Source of the DNA: Escherichia phage anhysbys | Strand: one strand, 5' to 3' | DNA: 64,000 nucleotides | Sequence record: NC_052656.1 | In this document: piece by piece, positions 36,998-55,462 of the stretch | Numbering within the stretch: the stretch's first letter is position 1 | Layout of the letters: each line of letters begins with the position of its first letter | Position numbers and translations under genes: made by a program | The notes under the pieces: generated by a model | Told to the model about the DNA's origin: nothing | Databases searched by the model: none | Seen by the model: the letters and a program-made list of their open reading frames with translations, nothing else

Positions 36998-37291
36998 ATG
37001 ATGAACATTACTTTAGCAACTAAGAATATTTCTGAAACAATTAACGGTTTTGGTGTGATTGTAGCCTTGCACGGTAACAATGAGAAATGGTTGGCTTCTT
37101 TTGAAGAGGATCGTCAACACAACATTATTTTAGATGCCCCTATAAAAGTTATGCATATCGTTGGTGAAAGCAAAGTGCTCACTTCCTCCCGTTCAAAAGA
37201 ACAAATTACAAATGAATTAGTAAAACTGCTTGACAATGTTCTTAACATGTTTGATAATGCACCCATCGATACAAAACGTGTCTTAATGTGA
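36998..37291 (+). CDS. Hypothetical protein
   Basis: 97-aa ORF, first plus-strand gene. Confidence 0.4.
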   Translation: MMNITLATKNISETINGFGVIVALHGNNEKWLASFEEDRQHNIILDAPIKVMHIVGESKVLTSSRSKEQITNELVKLLDNVLNMFDNAPIDTKRVLM

Positions 37292-37303
37292 GAGGAGAAC
37301 AAA

Positions 37304-37591
37304 ATGTACTATTCACAAGACGAAGTAGCAAACATTAAACTGGCAGTGGGCGATCTTATTGTGTCACCTAACTACTATTGGGATAACACAGATTTGGTTG
37401 AAGTAGTAACCTATGTTGGAGTTGAAGGTATTGTGCTCTACACATTAGGTGGAGGTGTTGTTGGGGAAATGGAACGTTATACGACAACGAAGAAACTGGT
37501 AAGCTCTTATCACATGTTTTTACACCAAGGTTCGGAAGAGTATACAGCTTTCTTGTTGAAATTAGATGCAGATCGGGAGAAGGCACGATGA
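37304..37591 (+). CDS. Hypothetical protein
   Basis: 95-aa ORF with RBS. Confidence 0.4.
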   Translation: MYYSQDEVANIKLAVGDLIVSPNYYWDNTDLVEVVTYVGVEGIVLYTLGGGVVGEMERYTTTKKLVSSYHMFLHQGSEEYTAFLLKLDADREKAR

Positions 37592-37944
37592 AAATTGTAC
37601 ACGATGAAATTCAAATAGAAGAAAGTGACCTGATGGATTTGGATGCAGCTTTGGGGAAGGTAATCTATGCAGGAATTAAAGCCTTCCGTGAGAAGGCAAA
37701 CAATAGCACGTTTGTCATGATCCCCACTAAACTGATGCGTGTTTTGTATCCAAATAGAAGTGCGCCGTATACAGATGAAGAAGAGGAGACAGGTAGAAGA
37801 GAGTGGTTAAATATTTTAGAAAAGATGGAGAATGCTTTTATTGATAGTGGTAATCCAGAAATCGTGTATGCTGAAGATCAAAGGAAGGCACGATTAGAAG
37901 GCCGTCTTTTATTCGCTAGTTATTTTGATAATCTTTGGAGCTAA
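37588..37944 (+). CDS. Hypothetical protein
   Basis: 118-aa ORF, ATGA overlap. Confidence 0.4.
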   Translation: MKIVHDEIQIEESDLMDLDAALGKVIYAGIKAFREKANNSTFVMIPTKLMRVLYPNRSAPYTDEEEETGRREWLNILEKMENAFIDSGNPEIVYAEDQRKARLEGRLLFASYFDNLWS

Positions 37945-38123
37945 ATATGTCTGAATTCTTCACAATGGCTTTCTTAGGGATCTATTTGATTATTAGTGCT
38001 GTTGGCTTAATCATGTCTCTAATAGAGGAAATGGGAATTAAGTGGAATTGTGTATTCGGTATAGCTCTTATGCTCACTCCAGTTTGGATTTACATTTGCA
38101 AATCGGTTGAACTAATTGGTTAA
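37935..38123 (+). CDS. Small membrane protein
   Basis: Two hydrophobic helices. Confidence 0.35.
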   Translation: MELNMSEFFTMAFLGIYLIISAVGLIMSLIEEMGIKWNCVFGIALMLTPVWIYICKSVELIG

Positions 38124-38472
38124 TGGAGGTAATATGTTTAGTAAAGAAATGAGAGAGGTGATCGCTACTCTGGTAGTTGATCATGGTGTTGAAGTTGAGC
38201 GTCACGTTTGGAAAGATGAGCCTCCTTTCTTTGATTTGGCATCACGGGCTAAAAGTCACATGTATCTCCTTGAAGATGATAAGGATTTTATTCTGCGTAT
38301 GCGTTATGATCGAGAGTTTAGAATTCCTCTTGACACAGATCCTGATGATGTAGTATTGTGGTTGGCAGAGCATTTCGCATTTAACGCTCTACATGGAAGA
38401 AGTTTTGGTAATGAACGTTGGGATACCATTTGTCGTAAACATAATATTGAACCAGAATACGGGAGTATGTAA
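38116..38472 (+). CDS. Hypothetical protein
   Basis: 118-aa ORF. Confidence 0.4.
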   Translation: MVNGGNMFSKEMREVIATLVVDHGVEVERHVWKDEPPFFDLASRAKSHMYLLEDDKDFILRMRYDREFRIPLDTDPDDVVLWLAEHFAFNALHGRSFGNERWDTICRKHNIEPEYGSM

Positions 38473-38723
38473 TGTTAAGCGTTAAGCCTAAGATGATCAG
38501 TGAAGACCAGAAAGATTTCATTTACAAGTGTGGACGAATCTGGAGAGAGTATACCAAGGGTAACGAGGTCGTGGTGGTTACTGAACACCAGATTGAAATC
38601 TCTGATCTTTTCGGTGATTATTTGCAAGTGATCAAATTAGGCATTGACAGAGGTTTGGTGCAGGTGTTAACATTATCCCAAGTTGAAGCAGAACACTTAG
38701 ACAAAATCATTGTCGAGTTCTAA
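38472..38723 (+). CDS. Hypothetical protein
   Basis: 83-aa ORF. Confidence 0.35.
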   Translation: MLSVKPKMISEDQKDFIYKCGRIWREYTKGNEVVVVTEHQIEISDLFGDYLQVIKLGIDRGLVQVLTLSQVEAEHLDKIIVEF

Positions 38724-38736
38724 GAGGAGAAAGAAT

Positions 38737-38901
38737 ATGATCTCTTTAGAATCAATAGCTTTTAAGAAAGGGTATACCGCAGGGTTCAAGTTTGGTATGT
38801 TTAATAAAGTAAATCCATATTGTCCAAAGACACACAAAAAGGAATTCGAAGAATGGGAAGATGGATTTTCTAAAGGCTATCAGGCAAAAGGTTGGTTGTA
38901 A
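38737..38901 (+). CDS. Hypothetical small protein
   Basis: RBS gaggagaaagaat ATG. Confidence 0.3.
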   Translation: MISLESIAFKKGYTAGFKFGMFNKVNPYCPKTHKKEFEEWEDGFSKGYQAKGWL

Positions 38902-38910
38902 GGAGAGAAT

Positions 38911-39075
38911 ATGATTTTAAACTTCATCATCAACTTGTGTTTGACATTGGGATTACTCTGTGCAATAGTATCCCCTCTGGTTGGTGAATATTGTTCTGAA
39001 CTGGCGATGTTTATAGTTCTTGGTGCGGCTATTGCTAATATGTTTGTCGCTGCGATTTGTATGTTGTGGGAATAG
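38911..39075 (+). CDS. Small membrane protein (54 aa, below ORF-track cutoff)
   Basis: RBS aaggagagaat ATG; hydrophobic. Confidence 0.3.
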   Translation: MILNFIINLCLTLGLLCAIVSPLVGEYCSELAMFIVLGAAIANMFVAAICMLWE

Positions 39076-39086
39076 GAGGGAAGTTT

Positions 39087-39443
39087 ATGAAAAAACTAAT
39101 CTTAGCCACATTGCTGGCTACCGTAAGCTTCACCACTTACGCTCAAAAATTTGTAGCAGTTAAAACGGATATTGGTAAAGATGTTGTGATCACAGGCAAC
39201 AAATTTTACTATACACCTGGAAATGGTGTTCTGGAAGAGTGCCAAGATGTTGAGGCATATACAGGAAAAGAAGATAACACGGAACGTCCTTTTTATTCGA
39301 TTATAGCTACTTGCAAAAATGAAATAGTAGCTATTAAACAATACAAAGATGCCCCTGGAGGAGAATACTTGTTAGTCAAGAATATTAAGAGTGAAAAAAC
39401 TGCAAAGTTTACAGTAATTATTTTAAAAGGAGAAACGTTCTAA
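39087..39443 (+). CDS. Secreted protein
   Basis: Signal peptide MKKLILATLLATVSFTTYA. Confidence 0.45.
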   Translation: MKKLILATLLATVSFTTYAQKFVAVKTDIGKDVVITGNKFYYTPGNGVLEECQDVEAYTGKEDNTERPFYSIIATCKNEIVAIKQYKDAPGGEYLLVKNIKSEKTAKFTVIILKGETF

Positions 39444-40582
39444 TGAAATACACTATTTTTGGAGATGTAGCTGTTGTAAATAAGGAATATGGCGTTGAAG
39501 CTAATAAACTTCCTGCTGGAGTTTGGGTTGTCAACTGCGATCCGCACGGTAACTACTCTTTAGTGCGTGGCGAAAGTTTCTCTCTTCCGAACACTCTTTA
39601 TGGGGAAACTAAAGATCGCGCCGCACATGTTATTAAAACATTTGCTCGTCGTAGTAAAGAAGGTAAAAATACTGGGGTGTTACTGACAGGGACAAAGGGC
39701 AGTGGTAAGACGATGTTAGCTAAACTGATTAGCATGTCCCTAATGTCCACAGAAGGTTTAGGTATTCCAACCATTTTGGTGACACAGCCTTACACAGATG
39801 CTGGATTCTTAGAATTTATGAGTAAAATTACAGATCGTGCTGTTGTTTTATTTGACGAATTTGATAAAGTGTACGCTAAGAAAGAAGATCAGGAAGCACT
39901 GTTGACCTTGTTGGATGGAACAGGAAGTGGGAATAAACTTTACATCCTAACTAAAAATAGTGGTTATATCTCGGAATATTTTGTAAACCGTCCTAGTCGT
40001 ATCTATTATAGTTTCAATTACGATAAACTGTCTAGTGAAACTATGTTAGATTACTTGGATAAGAACTTGGTAAATAAAAAACACGTAGATAACTTCCAAC
40101 GTTTATGGGATGTTAGCACAGAGTTGTCTTTCGATGTTATTCAAGGTATTGTAGAAGAATTGAATTTCTATCCAAAAATGACTTTTAAAGAATGTCTTGA
40201 AATGATGGGTATTTCTTTAGGCAACGATGCTAAATGGAATGTGGCTTCTATCGTAGCTAATGGCAAAACCTTGAAGGTGAATTGGATCAATAACTGGCAC
40301 GACTTCACCCCTACTAAGTTTTTGTCGGGTGCTTGTTCCCTGAACATATATCTGCAAAGCTTGAAAGATGATGAAGTGGAAGCAATGGAAACCAACAGTT
40401 ATGTTATCCTGGATGAAGATGGTGATCCACATATTGATCTATGTGCAACTGCTGATGGTCTAACTTGTGATCTGATTGAAGGTGGTAAGATTCTGGTGAT
40501 GAGCACCACACCAGGAAACACTCTGCGAGTGGTACTGGAGCCTGTAACACAACGTTCCACCACACTGGGTAGCGTGTTCTAA
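39443..40582 (+). CDS. AAA+/P-loop ATPase
   Basis: Walker A GTKGSGKTMLAKLI, Walker B VVLFDEFDKV. Confidence 0.55.
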   Translation: MKYTIFGDVAVVNKEYGVEANKLPAGVWVVNCDPHGNYSLVRGESFSLPNTLYGETKDRAAHVIKTFARRSKEGKNTGVLLTGTKGSGKTMLAKLISMSLMSTEGLGIPTILVTQPYTDAGFLEFMSKITDRAVVLFDEFDKVYAKKEDQEALLTLLDGTGSGNKLYILTKNSGYISEYFVNRPSRIYYSFNYDKLSSETMLDYLDKNLVNKKHVDNFQRLWDVSTELSFDVIQGIVEELNFYPKMTFKECLEMMGISLGNDAKWNVASIVANGKTLKVNWINNWHDFTPTKFLSGACSLNIYLQSLKDDEVEAMETNSYVILDEDGDPHIDLCATADGLTCDLIEGGKILVMSTTPGNTLRVVLEPVTQRSTTLGSVF

Positions 40583-40587
40583 TAAAG

Positions 40588-40610
40588 ATGCCCCACAAGG
40601 GGCATTTCTT
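40588..40610 (+). terminator. Rho-independent terminator
   Basis: atgcccc-acaa-ggggcat then ttctt. Confidence 0.5.
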
Positions 40611-40623
40611 ATAGGATGAAATC

Positions 40624-41832
40624 ATGAGTAAAGCTAAAAGTTGGGAAGAATATAAAGCAGAATGCGAGATCATAGCTCTCTCTAAAGGATATAAAATTTT
40701 AGGCCATAAAGAATGGAAAGGGTGTGAGACTAAACTCCTGATAGAATGTCCTGTGCACGGTGTATGGGATACTTGTAAAATAGCTAACTTTAAAAGTGGG
40801 AAGTCTTGCCCTTCTTGTGGTGAATTAACAAAAAGGGAGAAGAGAACGAAGAGCAGGGAGGACCAAGAGAAAGAGTGTGAAGAAGAAGCGTTAAAAAGAG
40901 GTTGGCGCTTCTTGGGTATCTACGGAGAATGGCTCAAAGCTAAAAAGACACGAGTAATCTTACGTTGTGACAGGGGTCACGAGTTTAACACATCTACCAT
41001 AGACAACTTTAAGAATAATAAACAAGGTTGTCCAGTTTGTCGTTTAGAGGATATAGGTAAACACCATAAGCTTTCAGACGATCAGCACATACAAGATTTC
41101 ATGCGTACGGGTGTGTTTCCCGAAGGCACTACCTTCACTAATACAGGGGAAAGAGCTGGGAGGAGCGAAATACTTTGGAGTGTATTTTGCCCTATCTGTG
41201 CTATAGATGAGTTTTCCAAAGCTGGGGTAGGAACGGGATATTTTATCGGTAGAGGTAGTTCATTAAAACAGGGTATGCGCCCTTGTCGTTGTTCTGCCAG
41301 TTACAAATATTCTGAAGAAGAGATGACATTTAGAGCAAAAAGTGACGTAGAACGTAGAGGGTACGTGTGGTTGGGGTGGATCGGGAAAGCTTCTATACTT
41401 GGGGATTTTGAATATGGTTGCAAGGATCATGGGAAACATGTGTGTAGTGCTAATAATTGGTTAAATAAGGGGTGTGGTTGCCCTGGTTGTGCAGGTATGA
41501 ATCAACAACAAGCCTACATTAATTATATTTACGATGAGCAAGATATTATCTGTGCACTGAAGTTTGGTATTGCTAATAATAGTGATCGCCGTATCAAAGA
41601 ACAAAATAGTCGTAATGTGTTTACTATGAAACAGAACCAAGTGTGGCACTTCCCTACTGTGAAGCAATGCAAAGATGCAGAGAAGCGTTGTAAACGTGTC
41701 CTTAACACGGAAGCGGTGAGCAAATATGCTATGCCAGATGGCTACACAGAAACAGTAGAGTTATCTTGCATGGCCTCAATACAAAACATTTATAAACTTT
41801 ATGGTGGAATATTACAGGAGGAAACATGTTAG
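40624..41832 (+). CDS. Multi-zinc-ribbon protein with C-terminal T5orf172/GIY-YIG-like domain
   Basis: Four C..H/C ... CPxC modules; C-terminal YINYIYDE...KFGIANNSDRRIKEQ. Confidence 0.4.
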   Translation: MSKAKSWEEYKAECEIIALSKGYKILGHKEWKGCETKLLIECPVHGVWDTCKIANFKSGKSCPSCGELTKREKRTKSREDQEKECEEEALKRGWRFLGIYGEWLKAKKTRVILRCDRGHEFNTSTIDNFKNNKQGCPVCRLEDIGKHHKLSDDQHIQDFMRTGVFPEGTTFTNTGERAGRSEILWSVFCPICAIDEFSKAGVGTGYFIGRGSSLKQGMRPCRCSASYKYSEEEMTFRAKSDVERRGYVWLGWIGKASILGDFEYGCKDHGKHVCSANNWLNKGCGCPGCAGMNQQQAYINYIYDEQDIICALKFGIANNSDRRIKEQNSRNVFTMKQNQVWHFPTVKQCKDAEKRCKRVLNTEAVSKYAMPDGYTETVELSCMASIQNIYKLYGGILQEETC

Positions 41833-42191
41833 TTGACGTTCAAATTATGCGCAACGAAAGAATGGACTTCTTTGAAGCAGTAGAGAAACATCTGATTCGA
41901 TGGGACTATGAATTTGTTCCTGCTGGATGTGGACCAGTAGAGCATTTAGCGGAAGACGATGATGTATACATGATCATTCGTCAAGTGTACCAGACAGACC
42001 AGTGTGAAGAAACTCCTGAACTAATTTTGTTTGAGTGCAAAGATCTTGCAAAATATTTTGACTATGGCGGAAAAGAGGGTCATAATCTCTCCAGATACAA
42101 TAAACGTCTACTTATCTTAGACTACATGCGGAACAACAAACACAAACTCATCGACGCAGACGCAGTTTATGGCTACTGGTGGATGGATTAA
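41826..42191 (+). CDS. Hypothetical protein
   Basis: 121-aa ORF. Confidence 0.4.
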   Translation: MLVDVQIMRNERMDFFEAVEKHLIRWDYEFVPAGCGPVEHLAEDDDVYMIIRQVYQTDQCEETPELILFECKDLAKYFDYGGKEGHNLSRYNKRLLILDYMRNNKHKLIDADAVYGYWWMD

Positions 42192-42204
42192 CAAAGGAGA
42201 AACT

Positions 42205-42393
42205 ATGGCACGTTTAGCAGATAACCCTGTATTCTACCCCGTTCTTGATCTTTATGATGAATTGACATATGTTGTGGAGCGGTATAATTACAATGAAGAC
42301 CTCTTGGAGACAAACCTTAAAGTAGTTCTGATGAAAGCCTATCAGCAAGGGCAACGTGAAATTTTGGAGAGTATGAAAAATGCGAATAACTGA
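42205..42393 (+). CDS. Hypothetical small protein
   Basis: RBS aaaggagaaact ATG. Confidence 0.35.
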   Translation: MARLADNPVFYPVLDLYDELTYVVERYNYNEDLLETNLKVVLMKAYQQGQREILESMKNANN

Positions 42394-42922
42394 TGAATAT
42401 GTATTCTTCTTTTCACATAAAGATGTGTTTAGTAATTGGTATATTGCACCCTTTACAGAAACCGAACCAGGTTACAATCAGACATTTAATTGTGTCGAAC
42501 AATACATGATGTGGCGTAAAGCTTTGCTTTTTAATGATCACAACACTGCACAGGCTATTCTGACTCATAGTTTGATACGGAAAGATGAGAAGATCCAAGC
42601 TTATTACAAACGTATGGGTAGGGCAGTGTCAGATTTTGATAACAACGTATGGGAAGAGAACCGTGAGCGTATTGTTATGCGAGGTTTATGCTTGAAATAT
42701 GTACAGAATCCAGATTTGTATGCAGACTTACACCTTTACCAATACAAAACGTTTGTTGAAGCAAGTCCTTACGATAAGGTTTACGGTATTGGAATGGGAA
42801 TGTATGAACCAGGGGTGCTAAATCCGGTCAACTGGAAAGGGCAAAATCTTTTAGGTAAATATCATAACAAACTGATCGAAATACTTTTCCCAGACAAAAT
42901 ACCGCAGAGACGATATTTGTGA
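42380..42922 (+). CDS. NADAR-domain protein (YbiA-like)
   Basis: VFFFSHKDVFSNW, CVEQYMMWRKA, DKVYGIGMG, GQNLLG align with the E. coli YbiA pattern. Confidence 0.6.
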   Translation: MRITDEYVFFFSHKDVFSNWYIAPFTETEPGYNQTFNCVEQYMMWRKALLFNDHNTAQAILTHSLIRKDEKIQAYYKRMGRAVSDFDNNVWEENRERIVMRGLCLKYVQNPDLYADLHLYQYKTFVEASPYDKVYGIGMGMYEPGVLNPVNWKGQNLLGKYHNKLIEILFPDKIPQRRYL

Positions 42923-42976
42923 TATTTTAACTTTTTTCATTTTTAGAACAAAGGCGTCACTTTGTAGCACAGAAAT

Positions 42977-43011
42977 AAGGCTCCTACAGCACCGTAGAGA
43001 GCCTATTATTT
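42977..43011 (+). terminator. Terminator after the NADAR gene
   Basis: aggctcctac...gtagagagcct stem then attattttg. Confidence 0.45.
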
Positions 43012-43162
43012 TGTCCTATACAAACCCTTGTCTTTTTCAGTTTGCATCACTAGGATTCGATCTGAGTGGGTTCCTGAAGGTCTGCCAATAAGATTAAAGG
43101 TTATCTCAAATTCCCATTACCTATTATCTCAAAAATCCCTCAAATTATTTAAACTTTTTAAG

Positions 43163-43350
43163 AATTTACAAAAGTGAAAGTTGAAAACCAAAATTTAAAG
43201 TTTAGGAAAATTATCTTAAAATGTTAGATACAAAACAAAACTCAAAAGTCAAGGAAAATTTTAAAAATTTTGCGCGCCCACAGTATTTAAAGTTTTTTTG
43301 CTTTTACAAAAATGAAAGTACAAAAGCAAAATTTAAAGTTTACAAAAATT
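43163..43350. repeat. AT-rich direct repeats (about 45 bp, two full copies plus one partial)
   Basis: ttacaaaagtgaaagttgaaaaccaaaatttaaagtttaggaaaatt vs ttacaaaaatgaaagtacaaaagcaaaatttaaagtttacaaaaatt. Confidence 0.6.
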
Positions 43351-43390
43351 TATGCAGATGGGGATGAGAAGAGTTCTCATGTGGAAATGC

Positions 43391-43469
43391 AAATGATAAT
43401 GATTCGCATTTAGGTTTATAAATGAGAATGATTCTTATTTAATAAAGTAAATGATAATCATTCTCATTT
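43391..43469. promoter_or_regulatory. Three Fur-box-like palindromes at 29-bp spacing
   Basis: aaatgataatgattcgcattt / aaatgagaatgattcttattt / aaatgataatcattctcattt; core AATGATAATCATT identical to the Fur box consensus GATAATGATAATCATTATC. Confidence 0.45.
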
Positions 43470-43727
43470 AGAGAATGACGCGCAGGGGCGGTGTTTGTCT
43501 CGCGCTCCCGTGTCCCCTCGCCATGTAATAAGAATAACAGATCCAACCAGGAAAGCAAGCGATTATTTTATCTTTACATTTCTTTACGAATATATAGCGC
43601 CCAGCCTACCGGCGATCAACCTTCCAACCAGTGCCCCTGGTATGTTAGCCCCGCCTTTACGCCGTGGGGTGGCGCTTCCTCTTCTGTATGTAAAACAGTA
43701 TAAGCCCTATCCCTGGGCTTGTCAAGA

Positions 43728-43994
43728 TTATTTTTTGTTTTCTTGCCAGGTCAGGACACCTAGCCAAAAATGAATATCACCTTTTCCCCAATGTGGTATA
43801 TTGCTTTCTTTCCCACCTTCACGCGCCCAGGTAAAACCGCCCGTGTAACTTTGTAATTGATAACTATCCTCGACCTTATAATCTGATAGGTTGAGAACGG
43901 TTTCAACCTTTAAGCCCGTTGCGCTTGCTACCTGGTGTACCGTGCCGCCTTGCCAGCCCAATGAGTGCATAAGGTGTAATGTAGTAGTTGTCAT
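43728..43994 (-). CDS. Hypothetical protein, isolated minus-strand gene in GC-richer segment
   Basis: 88-aa ORF. Confidence 0.35.
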   Translation of the reverse strand: MTTTTLHLMHSLGWQGGTVHQVASATGLKVETVLNLSDYKVEDSYQLQSYTGGFTWAREGGKESNIPHWGKGDIHFWLGVLTWQENKK

Positions 43995-44103
43995 GGTATC
44001 GCCCTTTCTTTGTTGTGCGCCCTGGTTGGCGCGGTAGAAAGATGATAGCCTTTTCCTTTATATATAGCAAGCAAAAAGAAAATAAAAAAGATTGAAAAAG
44101 TGG

Positions 44104-44132
44104 TTGACGTTCCTCACCTGGTAGCGTAGTAT
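44104..44132 (+). promoter_or_regulatory. Sigma70-like promoter TTGACG-17-TAGTAT
   Basis: Upstream of 44268 gene. Confidence 0.4.
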
Positions 44133-44267
44133 TCATCTTGTCGAGGGGGGCGCGGCACAACGACAATAAACAACAGGAGGGCGCAATGTAGGACGGGCAA
44201 AGGTGAGGATCTCCATAATCCACCGTCAACCAACAAAAAACATCATTCATCACCTGGAGTTAAAATC

Positions 44268-44465
44268 ATGGCAACATTGCACATAGTAGCGAAAGCAGGA
44301 CAAATCAGCGTCGTGGTAAACGGTTTTACTGAGTTCAGTCATCCCCAGGATGATCATGAAACGGTTTTATCTTTCATTGATTCCCTGTTAGAAATGGGAG
44401 TCATTACAGAAGACCAGCACGCTACAAAGTGCAAGCGCGTTAATCAAATTGCAGGGATAGAATAA
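44268..44465 (+). CDS. Hypothetical small protein (array gene)
   Basis: 65-aa ORF. Confidence 0.45.
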   Translation: MATLHIVAKAGQISVVVNGFTEFSHPQDDHETVLSFIDSLLEMGVITEDQHATKCKRVNQIAGIE

Positions 44466-53890: not shown

Positions 53891-54923
53891 GCCCGAACAA
53901 TGTTGATAGCTTTCGCCTATGAAAAACCGACACAGAACAAAATTGAATAAATCGCGGTATCGAGCTAATCAACCATTAAACGAATAACCATACCTCCCAG
54001 GGTAACAGGCTGTTAGAGAGCCATTTATAGCGGTTAAAATCGATCAACAACCAACAACAAACCATCAAAAACACCCTTTTACCTCCTTTCTAGTGCAATG
54101 ATAACCATTATCATCTACCCATGATTATCTATGCAATATAAGCGCATAATTATAATGTTGATAATAGTTCGCAACAACTAACCAACAAACAACATAAAAC
54201 AAGAAGCAAACTAATCATAATCAAAGGAATAATAGCAAGATGATTGATAACGACAAACAATCAAACCATGATGAATACTAAGCAAGATAACGATAACACG
54301 ACAAAACAACCAACTAACGAACAATAACAAACGAAACCATTAAAATAATAACTATTGCCATAATAGTGACTGAATGAAATCATTACAAAACGAATCATTC
54401 CCAGGATCATCATTAGCACGCTATGCCGGACACATAGCGAGCTAATAATAAGCCAACTACACCCCAACAATCATAACCATCGGTGATGGTTATTTCTTGT
54501 TACTGCGTAGCTTGCAATAATTGCAAGCGTAATTACGCTTACACTTATTGCGCTGGCTTATTATTAGCATTATATGTAATTACCAAGATCATAACATTAA
54601 CGCAATAACAATAATCATTGTAATGGTTACAATATGAAATCATTGGCAAGATGAATAATTGCACGTAGCAACATGAGCGAATAGCGACAGGTTGCATAGT
54701 GTGCACATAATAGAATAAAAGTCAATAATTTTGGGGGCGAAATGTTACCGCCACAGGCGGGAATGTTGAGCACTAAGAAAAGAGATAAACCTTAATCATG
54801 GGGGCGTAAATATCCGCAGGATTGCCAACGGCGATCCGGTAGGATGTTGAGCATCTTCTCTTAAACGTAAATAAAATCAGAAAATTCTTGATTTATTTTA
54901 GTTTTTATGTTAATAAACGTTTA

Positions 54924-54943
54924 AATAATAATCATTCTCATAT
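54924..54943. promoter_or_regulatory. Fur-box-like palindrome
   Basis: aataataatcattctcatat. Confidence 0.35.
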
Positions 54944-55101
54944 GAATAATAGTCTGCTTGTCATGAGCGGGATTAGTTGACATTGTTCCGTCATATGATG
55001 AGGTTGCCAACCTATTGATAAATAAGTGTTTGTGTGATTTATAATCAAGTGGCCCACCTTGTCGCTATGTTGGCATGAGCCTTGCATAAGTCATTGAATA
55101 C

Positions 55102-55122
55102 GAATGATAATTATTCTCATTC
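55102..55122. promoter_or_regulatory. Fur-box-like near-perfect palindrome
   Basis: gaatgataattattctcattc. Confidence 0.4.
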
Positions 55123-55462
55123 GCATGATATTTGGGAATTGTCGCTGCGTGGACCTGACGGCCCGAAAATTCGCGTTAAGCACTTCTTACGTATGCGCCA
55201 TGATTTTTGCCATATGATATTGATTCTATTAGATATTCTTGCCATGATTGCCATGAAACAGGGTGTCCCGAAATAATCTCTCCCCGTAGATATTTTGGGT
55301 TACTTTTTATACAAGAGTGGGGTGTCAAAAATAATCGATATATATGGGATAATTGATAGGAATCCCCTATGGTAATTCGATTGTAATTGCCGAAGATTGA
55401 TCGTATGATGTTGGTGATTGATGATTGCCATGAAAGATGGCTAACGATGAGAGGAGATTGTC

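Follow-up and report, generated by a model that had tools for sequence, protein, structure and literature searches.

The question raised by this locus is what a NADAR-domain gene does for the phage that carries it. A preliminary description of the DNA, made from the letters alone, had placed a YbiA-like NADAR gene at the end of an early plus-strand operon and proposed that its product counters DNA ADP-ribosylating toxins. We followed this up in the window, by which we mean the whole stretch of 64,000 nucleotides from Escherichia phage anhysbys (NC_052656.1). Over the 5 kb around the gene, the window shares 95–98% of its nucleotides with Escherichia phages of Phapecoctavirus, a genus in the subfamily Stephanstirmvirinae; iGC_PHA_EC001, ESCO5, nepoznato and phAPEC8, the type phage, are among them. 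On this similarity we assign the window to Phapecoctavirus, as a phAPEC8-like E. coli myophage. Between positions 1000 and 36900 the genes lie on the minus strand; from ∼37000 on, nearly all are plus-strand, small and uncharacterised, and the GC skew minimum (∼36–37 kb) coincides with this switch of coding strand.

The open reading frame had been located exactly, with an ATG start and 180 codons (Table 1). Its product is 100% identical to gp010 of phAPEC8 (YP_007348624.1), and its start overlaps the preceding small ORF, which has its stop codon at 42391–42393, by 14 nt. A profile search of all six frames of the window gave this ORF as the sole match, with no second NADAR. Among Phapecoctavirus alleles dN/dS is 0.10–0.15; the gene is intact and under purifying selection. 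Comparison with ESCO5 places it last in a run of ∼14 tightly packed, co-directional plus-strand genes (37001–42922). The gene does close such a run, as had been said, but plus-strand genes resume at 44268. The layout of the run, together with sigma70-like promoters, makes its early expression plausible, and from gene layout alone we infer that the NADAR protein is made early in infection.

Table 1. Features of the NADAR locus, with positions in the window
Feature	Position	Strand	Size, basis or remarks
AAA-type ATPase	39443..40582	+	379 aa; PF00004 E=8.7e-7; phrog_2376 E=3.9e-111
CapR zinc-ribbon-like protein	40624..41832	+	402 aa; 3–4 CapR domains, E=3e-23
Two small ORFs of function-unknown families	41826..42393	+	121 aa, phrog_24465; ≤74 aa, phrog_22330; between endonuclease and NADAR
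GGAG ribosome-binding site	42366..42369	+	10 nt 5' of the ATG; read from the sequence
NADAR-domain gene	42380..42922	+	180 aa, ATG start
Codons E40 to K47 (EQYMMWRK), catalytic Glu/Lys helix	42497..42520	+	HMMER alignment to 8BAU
Codons E127–G138 (EASPYDKVYGIG)	42758..42793	+	second active-site acid region
Intrinsic terminator	42978..43014	+	10-bp bulged GC-rich hairpin 42978–43004, then AUUAUUUUGU

Membership of the NADAR family was borne out by the profile searches. The Pfam NADAR model (PF08719) matches with E=1.8e-35 and 123 bits against a cut-off of 35.1, residues 11–161 lying on model positions 3–154 of 163, and the NCBIfam model TIGR02464 scores 112 bits against a cut-off of 73.7. The protein also belongs to PHROG 1017 (E=5e-52), a family of unknown function, and reaches 16.5 bits with NF053876, the DS32_2 NADAR-family anti-phage defence protein, below that model's cut-off of 240. 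The Pfam search found no domain besides NADAR. The four motifs quoted in the preliminary description are all found, FSN at residues 17–19, EQYMMWRK at 40–47, DKVYGIG at 132–138 and GQNLLG at 154–159, their YbiA counterparts being FSN, EHYFQAQK, DAYWG and GKNRLG. They are spread over the whole domain, however, and not confined to the N-terminal half as had been suggested; in BLASTP against YbiA the C-terminal half alone aligns (E=2e-6). Likewise, the label ‘YbiA-like’ is right at the level of the superfamily, but stand-alone NADARs are closer: the family profile of the window protein matches the stand-alone structure 8BAU with E=1.4e-34 and YbiA with 2e-17, and does not match the DarG1 structure.

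Structure prediction led to the same fold. The AlphaFold2 model, made with 69 homologs, has a mean pLDDT of 95.7 and a pTM of 0.89, with disorder in the last few residues only. Foldseek gave just two significant matches in the PDB, the nearest being 8BAU (TM 0.79) and the other E. coli YbiA, 2B3W (TM 0.69). In RB69, the allele of the T-even NADAR has a truncated C-terminal helix and is crippled by it (PMC11825919); in the model of the window protein, which is full length, this helix is present at residues 157–169.

The active site could be compared directly with that of the Phytophthora nicotianae (Pn) NADAR, in which E43 and E125 lie at the distal ribose and K50, R79, W89, R93, W133 and, through a water, D130 lie at the pyrophosphate (Schuller et al. 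2023, PMC11543638). HMMER aligns E40, K47, R81, W91, R95, E127 and D132 of the window protein with Pn E43, K50, R79, W89, R93, E125 and D130 of structure 8BAU, in which the chain numbering is offset by two. The sole change among the Pn contact residues is Y135 in place of W133, and this is still aromatic. The equivalents of the E40/K47 pair are E88/K95 in E. coli C7 DarG1 and E36/K43 in T4 AdfN. At the second active-site acid, the site of Pn E125, the window protein has the conserved Glu, E127; DarG1 has Asp there and T4-type NADARs have His. None of E40, K47, W91, E127 and D132 varies across 69 homologs, and R81 hardly does. An absence of catalytic residues had been named as the finding that would count against the proposal; they are present, and this objection falls away because the protein has the fold, the domain and the catalytic residues of an active NADAR. 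The observation of a NADAR gene is confirmed, with matches far stronger than chance would produce.

The neighbouring genes were also largely as described. The upstream AAA+ ATPase is recovered by both Pfam and PHROG profiles (Table 1), and its position is kept in the genus Justusliebigvirus. The second neighbour had been called a multi-zinc-ribbon, T5orf172-like protein. Its zinc ribbons are clear, but the T5orf172 assignment falls below threshold: the GIY-YIG-type C-terminus scores 16.2 bits with T5orf172 against a cut-off of 20 and 17.4 with MUG113 against 22.3. Records of relatives label this protein endonuclease or homing endonuclease, and we refer to its gene as the endonuclease gene. The two small ORFs that follow it are absent in Justusliebigvirus, where the endonuclease gene directly precedes the NADAR gene. 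Profile searches of the neighbours (the ATPase, the CapR/GIY-YIG-like protein and the small ORFs) found no ADP-ribosyltransferase domain, and no darT-like gene lies beside the NADAR gene.

A terminator 3' of the NADAR gene had likewise been proposed, and it is well supported. The hairpin with its AUUAUUUUGU tail folds with z=-4.25 relative to shuffled sequences, and its position is that of an ARNold-predicted terminator annotated in phAPEC8. A simple terminator scan overlooks the hairpin at 42978–43004 because it is bulged.

The evidence that bears most directly on function comes from the sister genus. The NADAR protein is 59% identical over 172 residues (E=4e-69) to bas60_0111 (QXV83846.1) of phage PaulScherrer (Bas60). 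Bas60–62 are the phi92-like phages PaulScherrer, EmilieFrey and JohannJBalmer, now placed in Justusliebigvirus, the sister genus within Stephanstirmvirinae. The order ATPase, endonuclease, NADAR and then a long gene-poor stretch is common to both genera, and on similarity and gene order together we regard bas60_0111 as the syntenic ortholog of the window NADAR. Johannesman et al. (Nat Commun 2025) named the NADAR of Bas60–62 AdfN-Bas60 (PMC11825919). A single NADAR, bas60_0111, was detected in Bas60, with one matching place in the record, and we therefore take it to be AdfN-Bas60. In E. coli, that protein needs no other phage factor to neutralise DarT1, and when it is expressed ectopically RB69, T5 and Bas25 regain full titre on DarTG1 hosts; the thymine-specific DarTG2 is not countered (PMC11825919). 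LeRoux and colleagues placed the AdfN-Bas60 clade outside the YbiA group (PMC11825919).

It is therefore likely that the window NADAR is a guanine-ADP-ribose DNA glycohydrolase that counters DarT1, the Phapecoctavirus ortholog of AdfN-Bas60. The proposal of a counter to DNA ADP-ribosylating toxins draws its support from this 59%-identical syntenic ortholog, which neutralises DarT1 (PMC11825919). What we observe for the window protein itself is an ORF with the domain, fold and active-site residues of a NADAR, under purifying selection and both orthologous to and syntenic with bas60_0111; guanine-ADP-ribose hydrolysis, DarT1 neutralisation and DarTG1 rescue are published for the ortholog and other NADARs. 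During infection, a DarT1-type ADP-ribosyltransferase of the host would place ADP-ribose on guanine N2 of the phage DNA and so block replication. The NADAR would bind the ADP-ribose, with K47, R81, W91, R95, Y135 and, through water, D132 at the pyrophosphate, and with E40 and E127 holding the distal ribose. Hydrolysis of the N-glycosidic bond between ribose C1'' and guanine N2 would then leave unmodified DNA, on which replication could proceed. Since the target would be the lesion and not the toxin, the enzyme should counter any guanine-directed DNA ADP-ribosyltransferase. Thymine ADP-ribosylation by DarT2 is not expected to be countered.

At 59% identity the substrate specificity could differ from that of AdfN-Bas60. 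Not all NADARs with guanine-ADP-ribose hydrolase activity in vitro protect cells from DarT1; the differences are sharp, and YbiA and T4 gp30.3 gave no protection in uninfected cells (PMC11125620). The idea that orphan NADARs serve as anti-DarT1 factors was already in print in 2025, and so was the activity of the ortholog from the sister genus. Our literature search found no paper naming a Phapecoctavirus NADAR or the activity of any Phapecoctavirus allele.

The gene is widely distributed. At a protein identity of at least 80% it is present in at least 69 Phapecoctavirus-type records, and NADARs of the window type occur in 717 phage records, including phages of Staphylococcus, Listeria, Enterococcus and Bacillus. 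In 4MG and in Klebsiella phage relatives (Vequintavirinae) the homolog lies among genes for DNA ligase, exonuclease, endonuclease VII and DNA polymerase, and this setting among DNA-metabolism genes fits a role on DNA. We also considered whether ATPase, endonuclease and NADAR form a conserved functional module. This is unsupported beyond Stephanstirmvirinae, the neighbours being different in 4MG and the Klebsiella phages. In a search of the closest cellular homologs for the ancestral context of the gene, the two long contigs that were checked, of 330–355 kb, have densely packed, co-directional genes. They are therefore probably jumbo phages, and they gave no bacterial context.

Whilst reversal of DarT1 damage is the explanation we favour, it is possible that this is one facet of a broader or different eraser activity. 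The main substrates would then be other ADP-ribosylated nucleobases, cytosine- or guanine-ADP-ribose in DNA or RNA, made by modifiers other than DarT1 (pierisin/ScARP-like, YarT-like or undiscovered defence toxins). E127 is a Glu, as in the stand-alone and YbiA families, at a position where DarG1 has Asp and T4-type NADARs have His, and Glu-type stand-alone and YbiA members removed cytidine-ADP-ribose from DNA and RNA where DarG1s and the T4 NADAR did not (PMC12945103). The 717 phage records span many host genera, which also speaks for a broader substrate range, as does the presence of phosphoribosyltransferase-family genes near the homologs on the two long contigs, with a NAMPT/NAPRTase gene near on one. 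Set against this, a cytosine-modifying ADP-ribosyltransferase is not known as an E. coli anti-phage defence (PMC12945103), and the demonstrated phenotype of the ortholog is anti-DarT1 (PMC11825919). We consider this reading, which overlaps with the main explanation and does not exclude it, unlikely as an account of the main substrates. We would give only a small chance to an extended version, in which the Stephanstirmvirinae NADAR is broad-spectrum and counters several ADP-ribosyltransferase defences, some of them still to be discovered in enterobacteria, a variable surface patch (residues ∼28–75) tuning its substrate or context specificity between lineages.

Two further accounts appear very improbable. 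The protein might be a YbiA-like metabolic N-glycosidase of reactive riboflavin-pathway intermediates, encoded by an auxiliary metabolic gene with no anti-defence role; the above-threshold model TIGR02464 (112 versus 73.7 bits) is indeed entitled ‘riboflavin biosynthesis intermediates N-glycosidase’, and several GenBank records read ‘GTP cyclohydrolase II’ or ‘YbiA-like N-glycosidase’. However, the window protein is clearly nearer to the ADP-ribose-bound stand-alone NADAR than to YbiA, the other window proteins that were scanned gave no match to a riboflavin-pathway family, and the ortholog is anti-DarT1 and of a clade outside the YbiA group (PMC11825919). The ‘GTP cyclohydrolase II’ of ESCO5 and other records we reject, the only domain being NADAR; because the protein has no other domain, the label is explained as a transfer error from RibA-NADAR fusions. 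The protein might instead be a non-enzymatic, ADP-ribose-binding inhibitor of an NAD+-consuming defence. A different phage NADAR, which inhibits Retron-Eco1, reportedly binds ADP-ribose, and the window protein retains the residues for such binding. That Retron-Eco1 inhibitor (a 2024 study, as cited in PMC11825919) has no need of enzymatic activity. Yet E40, K47 and E127, the catalytic residues, do not vary within the family, a sign of selection on catalysis.

The 1.3-kb stretch that follows the NADAR gene (42923–44267) has features of its own. It has an AT-rich part with a direct repeat, and three tandem 21-bp palindromes, AAATGAKAATSATTCKCATTT, which are Fur-box-like, lie at 43391–43469. The best palindrome core, TGATAATCATTCTCA, is one mismatch from the Fur-box consensus of E. 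coli. The 21-mer is matched 8 times, where 0.02 are expected, and further Fur-box-like sites are found in a second gene-poor stretch at ∼54.1–55.1 kb. A replication origin at the repeats was considered and set aside, the GC skew minimum being at ∼36–37 kb and not at 43.4 kb.

A GC-rich block at ∼43466–43730 is almost invariant between Phapecoctavirus and Justusliebigvirus, and the wider region round it is 80–81% identical in nucleotides, compared with 59% for the NADAR protein; this non-coding block is more conserved across the genera than the surrounding genes. In Vequintavirinae (POP15, Mydo, 4MG and EspYZU12) it recurs, 69–76% identical, in gaps that carry no annotation, and in 4MG it is 48 kb away from the NADAR gene. 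One- and two-base indels within the block rule out that it is coding. The indication of RNA structure in it is weak to moderate. Scans of the window and the downstream gap found no tRNA and no Rfam match at gathering score, hits at E≤1 being at chance level only. A host origin of the block was rejected, as it has no similarity to any complete E. coli genome. This downstream element may merit follow-up more than the NADAR gene.

The analysis gives a probable function to a gene which public records list as ‘hypothetical protein’ or, wrongly, as ‘GTP cyclohydrolase II’. Phages under consideration for the treatment of avian-pathogenic and drug-resistant E. coli are among its carriers, and the prediction is that NADAR-bearing Phapecoctavirus phages would resist DarTG1-carrying hosts.

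The NADAR superfamily has been split into stand-alone NADARs, YbiA-type proteins, T4-type phage NADARs and DarG1 antitoxins (PMC12945103). By family profile and predicted structure the window protein has its nearest kin in the stand-alone group. Members of that group from P. nicotianae (8BAU), S. coelicolor (SCO5665) and the E. coli sigma70 operon, are ∼30% identical to it and are cellular, not viral. The Pn protein further differs in having W133 where the window protein has Tyr, and in a longer insert between the DxxWG and GxNxLG motifs. E. coli YbiA (2B3W) is also ∼30% identical, but it is without the 11-residue insert before the WKGQN motif, and it is an N-glycosidase of riboflavin intermediates encoded by a housekeeping gene in a LexA-controlled operon. 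E127 is common to YbiA-type and stand-alone NADARs, and so does not discriminate between them. The closest relatives of the window NADAR lie outside the YbiA group, and with the K-12 context as comparison there is neither fusion nor linkage to riboflavin genes or to the dinG-ybiB operon: the protein has a single domain, and its neighbours and the other window proteins scanned gave no riboflavin-pathway match.

The DarG1 antitoxins (G. lovleyi, PDB 8BAT; E. coli C7) remove ADP-ribose from guanine N2 in DNA, which is the reaction predicted here. The features of DarG1 itself, namely adjacency to darT1, an N-terminal extension and Asp as the second acid, are absent from the window NADAR. In DarG1-type NADARs a lysine, C7 K115, is reported to be important for DarT1 rescue. 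AdfN-T4 (T4 gp30.3) shares the superfamily, the role of an orphan anti-DarT1 eraser and the Glu/Lys pair, but it has no detectable pairwise similarity to the window protein (BLASTP E=4.2; 16% identity in the alignment) and a His, as KH in the alignment, at the position of E127. On these two differences membership of the T4 gp30.3 family was rejected, and NADARs of the T4 type and of the window type were acquired independently. The T4 NADAR requires a T-even-specific factor, unlike AdfN-Bas60 (PMC11825919).

The nearest characterised system is AdfN-Bas60 itself. It belongs to another genus, ∼40% of the residues differ, mostly within residues 25–75 and in the C-terminal tail, and in Phapecoctavirus two additional small ORFs separate the NADAR gene from the endonuclease gene. 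The two proteins nevertheless come from the same virus subfamily, occupy the same genomic slot, fall in the same length class (180 versus 183 aa), have no adjacent toxin and are identical in their catalytic motifs (EQYMMWRK, FVEASPYD and WKGQNLLGK).

The gene-poor stretch that follows the NADAR gene contains a GC-rich block which hardly changes between Phapecoctavirus and its sister genus Justusliebigvirus. Across the larger region 43259-44228 the two genera share 80-81% nucleotide identity, and the adjoining NADAR protein only 59%. Since one- and two-base indels rule out a coding role, the block is non-coding. It can also be recognised, with 69-76% identity, in the Vequintavirinae POP15, Mydo, 4MG and EspYZU12, where it occupies gaps that carry no annotation and lies at a distance from the NADAR genes of those phages. 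No match to the block was found in Rfam, and no similarity to E. coli. Alifold gave z scores of -4.1 for the plus strand and -2.7 for the minus strand with a few compensatory changes, which is modest support for a structured RNA.

Features of the two gene-poor stretches and of the gap between the ATPase and CapR/GIY-YIG-like genes
Feature	Window position	Strand	Remark
Perfect GC-rich hairpin, ATGCCCCACAAGGGGCAT	40588-40605
AT-rich direct repeat	43146-43212, ~43284-43350		immediately downstream of the NADAR terminator
21-bp palindrome AAATGAKAATSATTCKCATTT, three in tandem	43391-43411, 43420-43440, 43449-43469
GC-rich non-coding block	~43466-43730		inside the gene-poor stretch 42923-44267
Near-consensus sigma70 promoter, TTGACA-17-TATACT	43697-43725	-
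Terminator-like hairpin	43702-43720	-	after the 88-aa ORF
Small ORF, 88 aa, phrog_19316 (family of unknown function)	43731-43994	-
Second gene-poor stretch	~53900-55450
Further Fur-box-like palindromes	54099-54113, 54923-54943, 55102-55122		in the second gene-poor stretch

The tandem palindromes are spaced at 29 bp, and their core, TGATAATCATTCTCA, differs by one mismatch from the Fur-box consensus of E. coli, TGATAATnATTATCA. The 21-mer had eight matches, where chance would give 0.02. In phAPEC8, ESCO5, PD06 and Bas60 copies are conserved at the same position, and a resembling sequence was found in T5-like phages. The palindromes might serve as operators or decoys for Fur, or be iteron-like sites. 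The second gene-poor stretch, in addition to its own palindromes, also has long A/C-rich runs such as CAACAACCAACAACAAACC. The copies of the AT-rich repeat (∼67 bp, including ‘...GAAAGTnnAAAAnCAAAATTTAAAGTTTA...’) are 84% identical.

On the minus strand, the predicted promoter is directed into the conserved block, and the terminator-like hairpin falls within the promoter spacer. In the middle of the small ORF the window is sharply unlike phAPEC8, which suggests a mosaic exchange, because phAPEC8 is there similar to Justusliebigvirus. The hairpin in the 41-nt gap separating the ATPase gene from the CapR/GIY-YIG-like gene may be an attenuator, or may mark the edge of a mobile endonuclease gene.

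The NADAR gene itself was compared with the GenBank records of ESCO5, Mt1B1_P17, EF1-1, TSP7_1, KMB37 and AV123. In several public phage records it is wrongly labelled ‘GTP cyclohydrolase II’, apparently by transfer from RibA-NADAR fusion proteins. Homologs with ∼43-45% identity are carried by two metagenome contigs of 330-355 kb (L015 and L016), which look like jumbo phages. Both have a Pribosyltran-family (phosphoribosyltransferase) gene close to the NADAR homolog. On one contig there are also genes for a nucleoside deoxyribosyltransferase and an NAMPT/NAPRTase, and on the other there is one for an adenylosuccinate synthase. These genes hint at a broader neighbourhood of NAD/ADP-ribose counter-defence genes.
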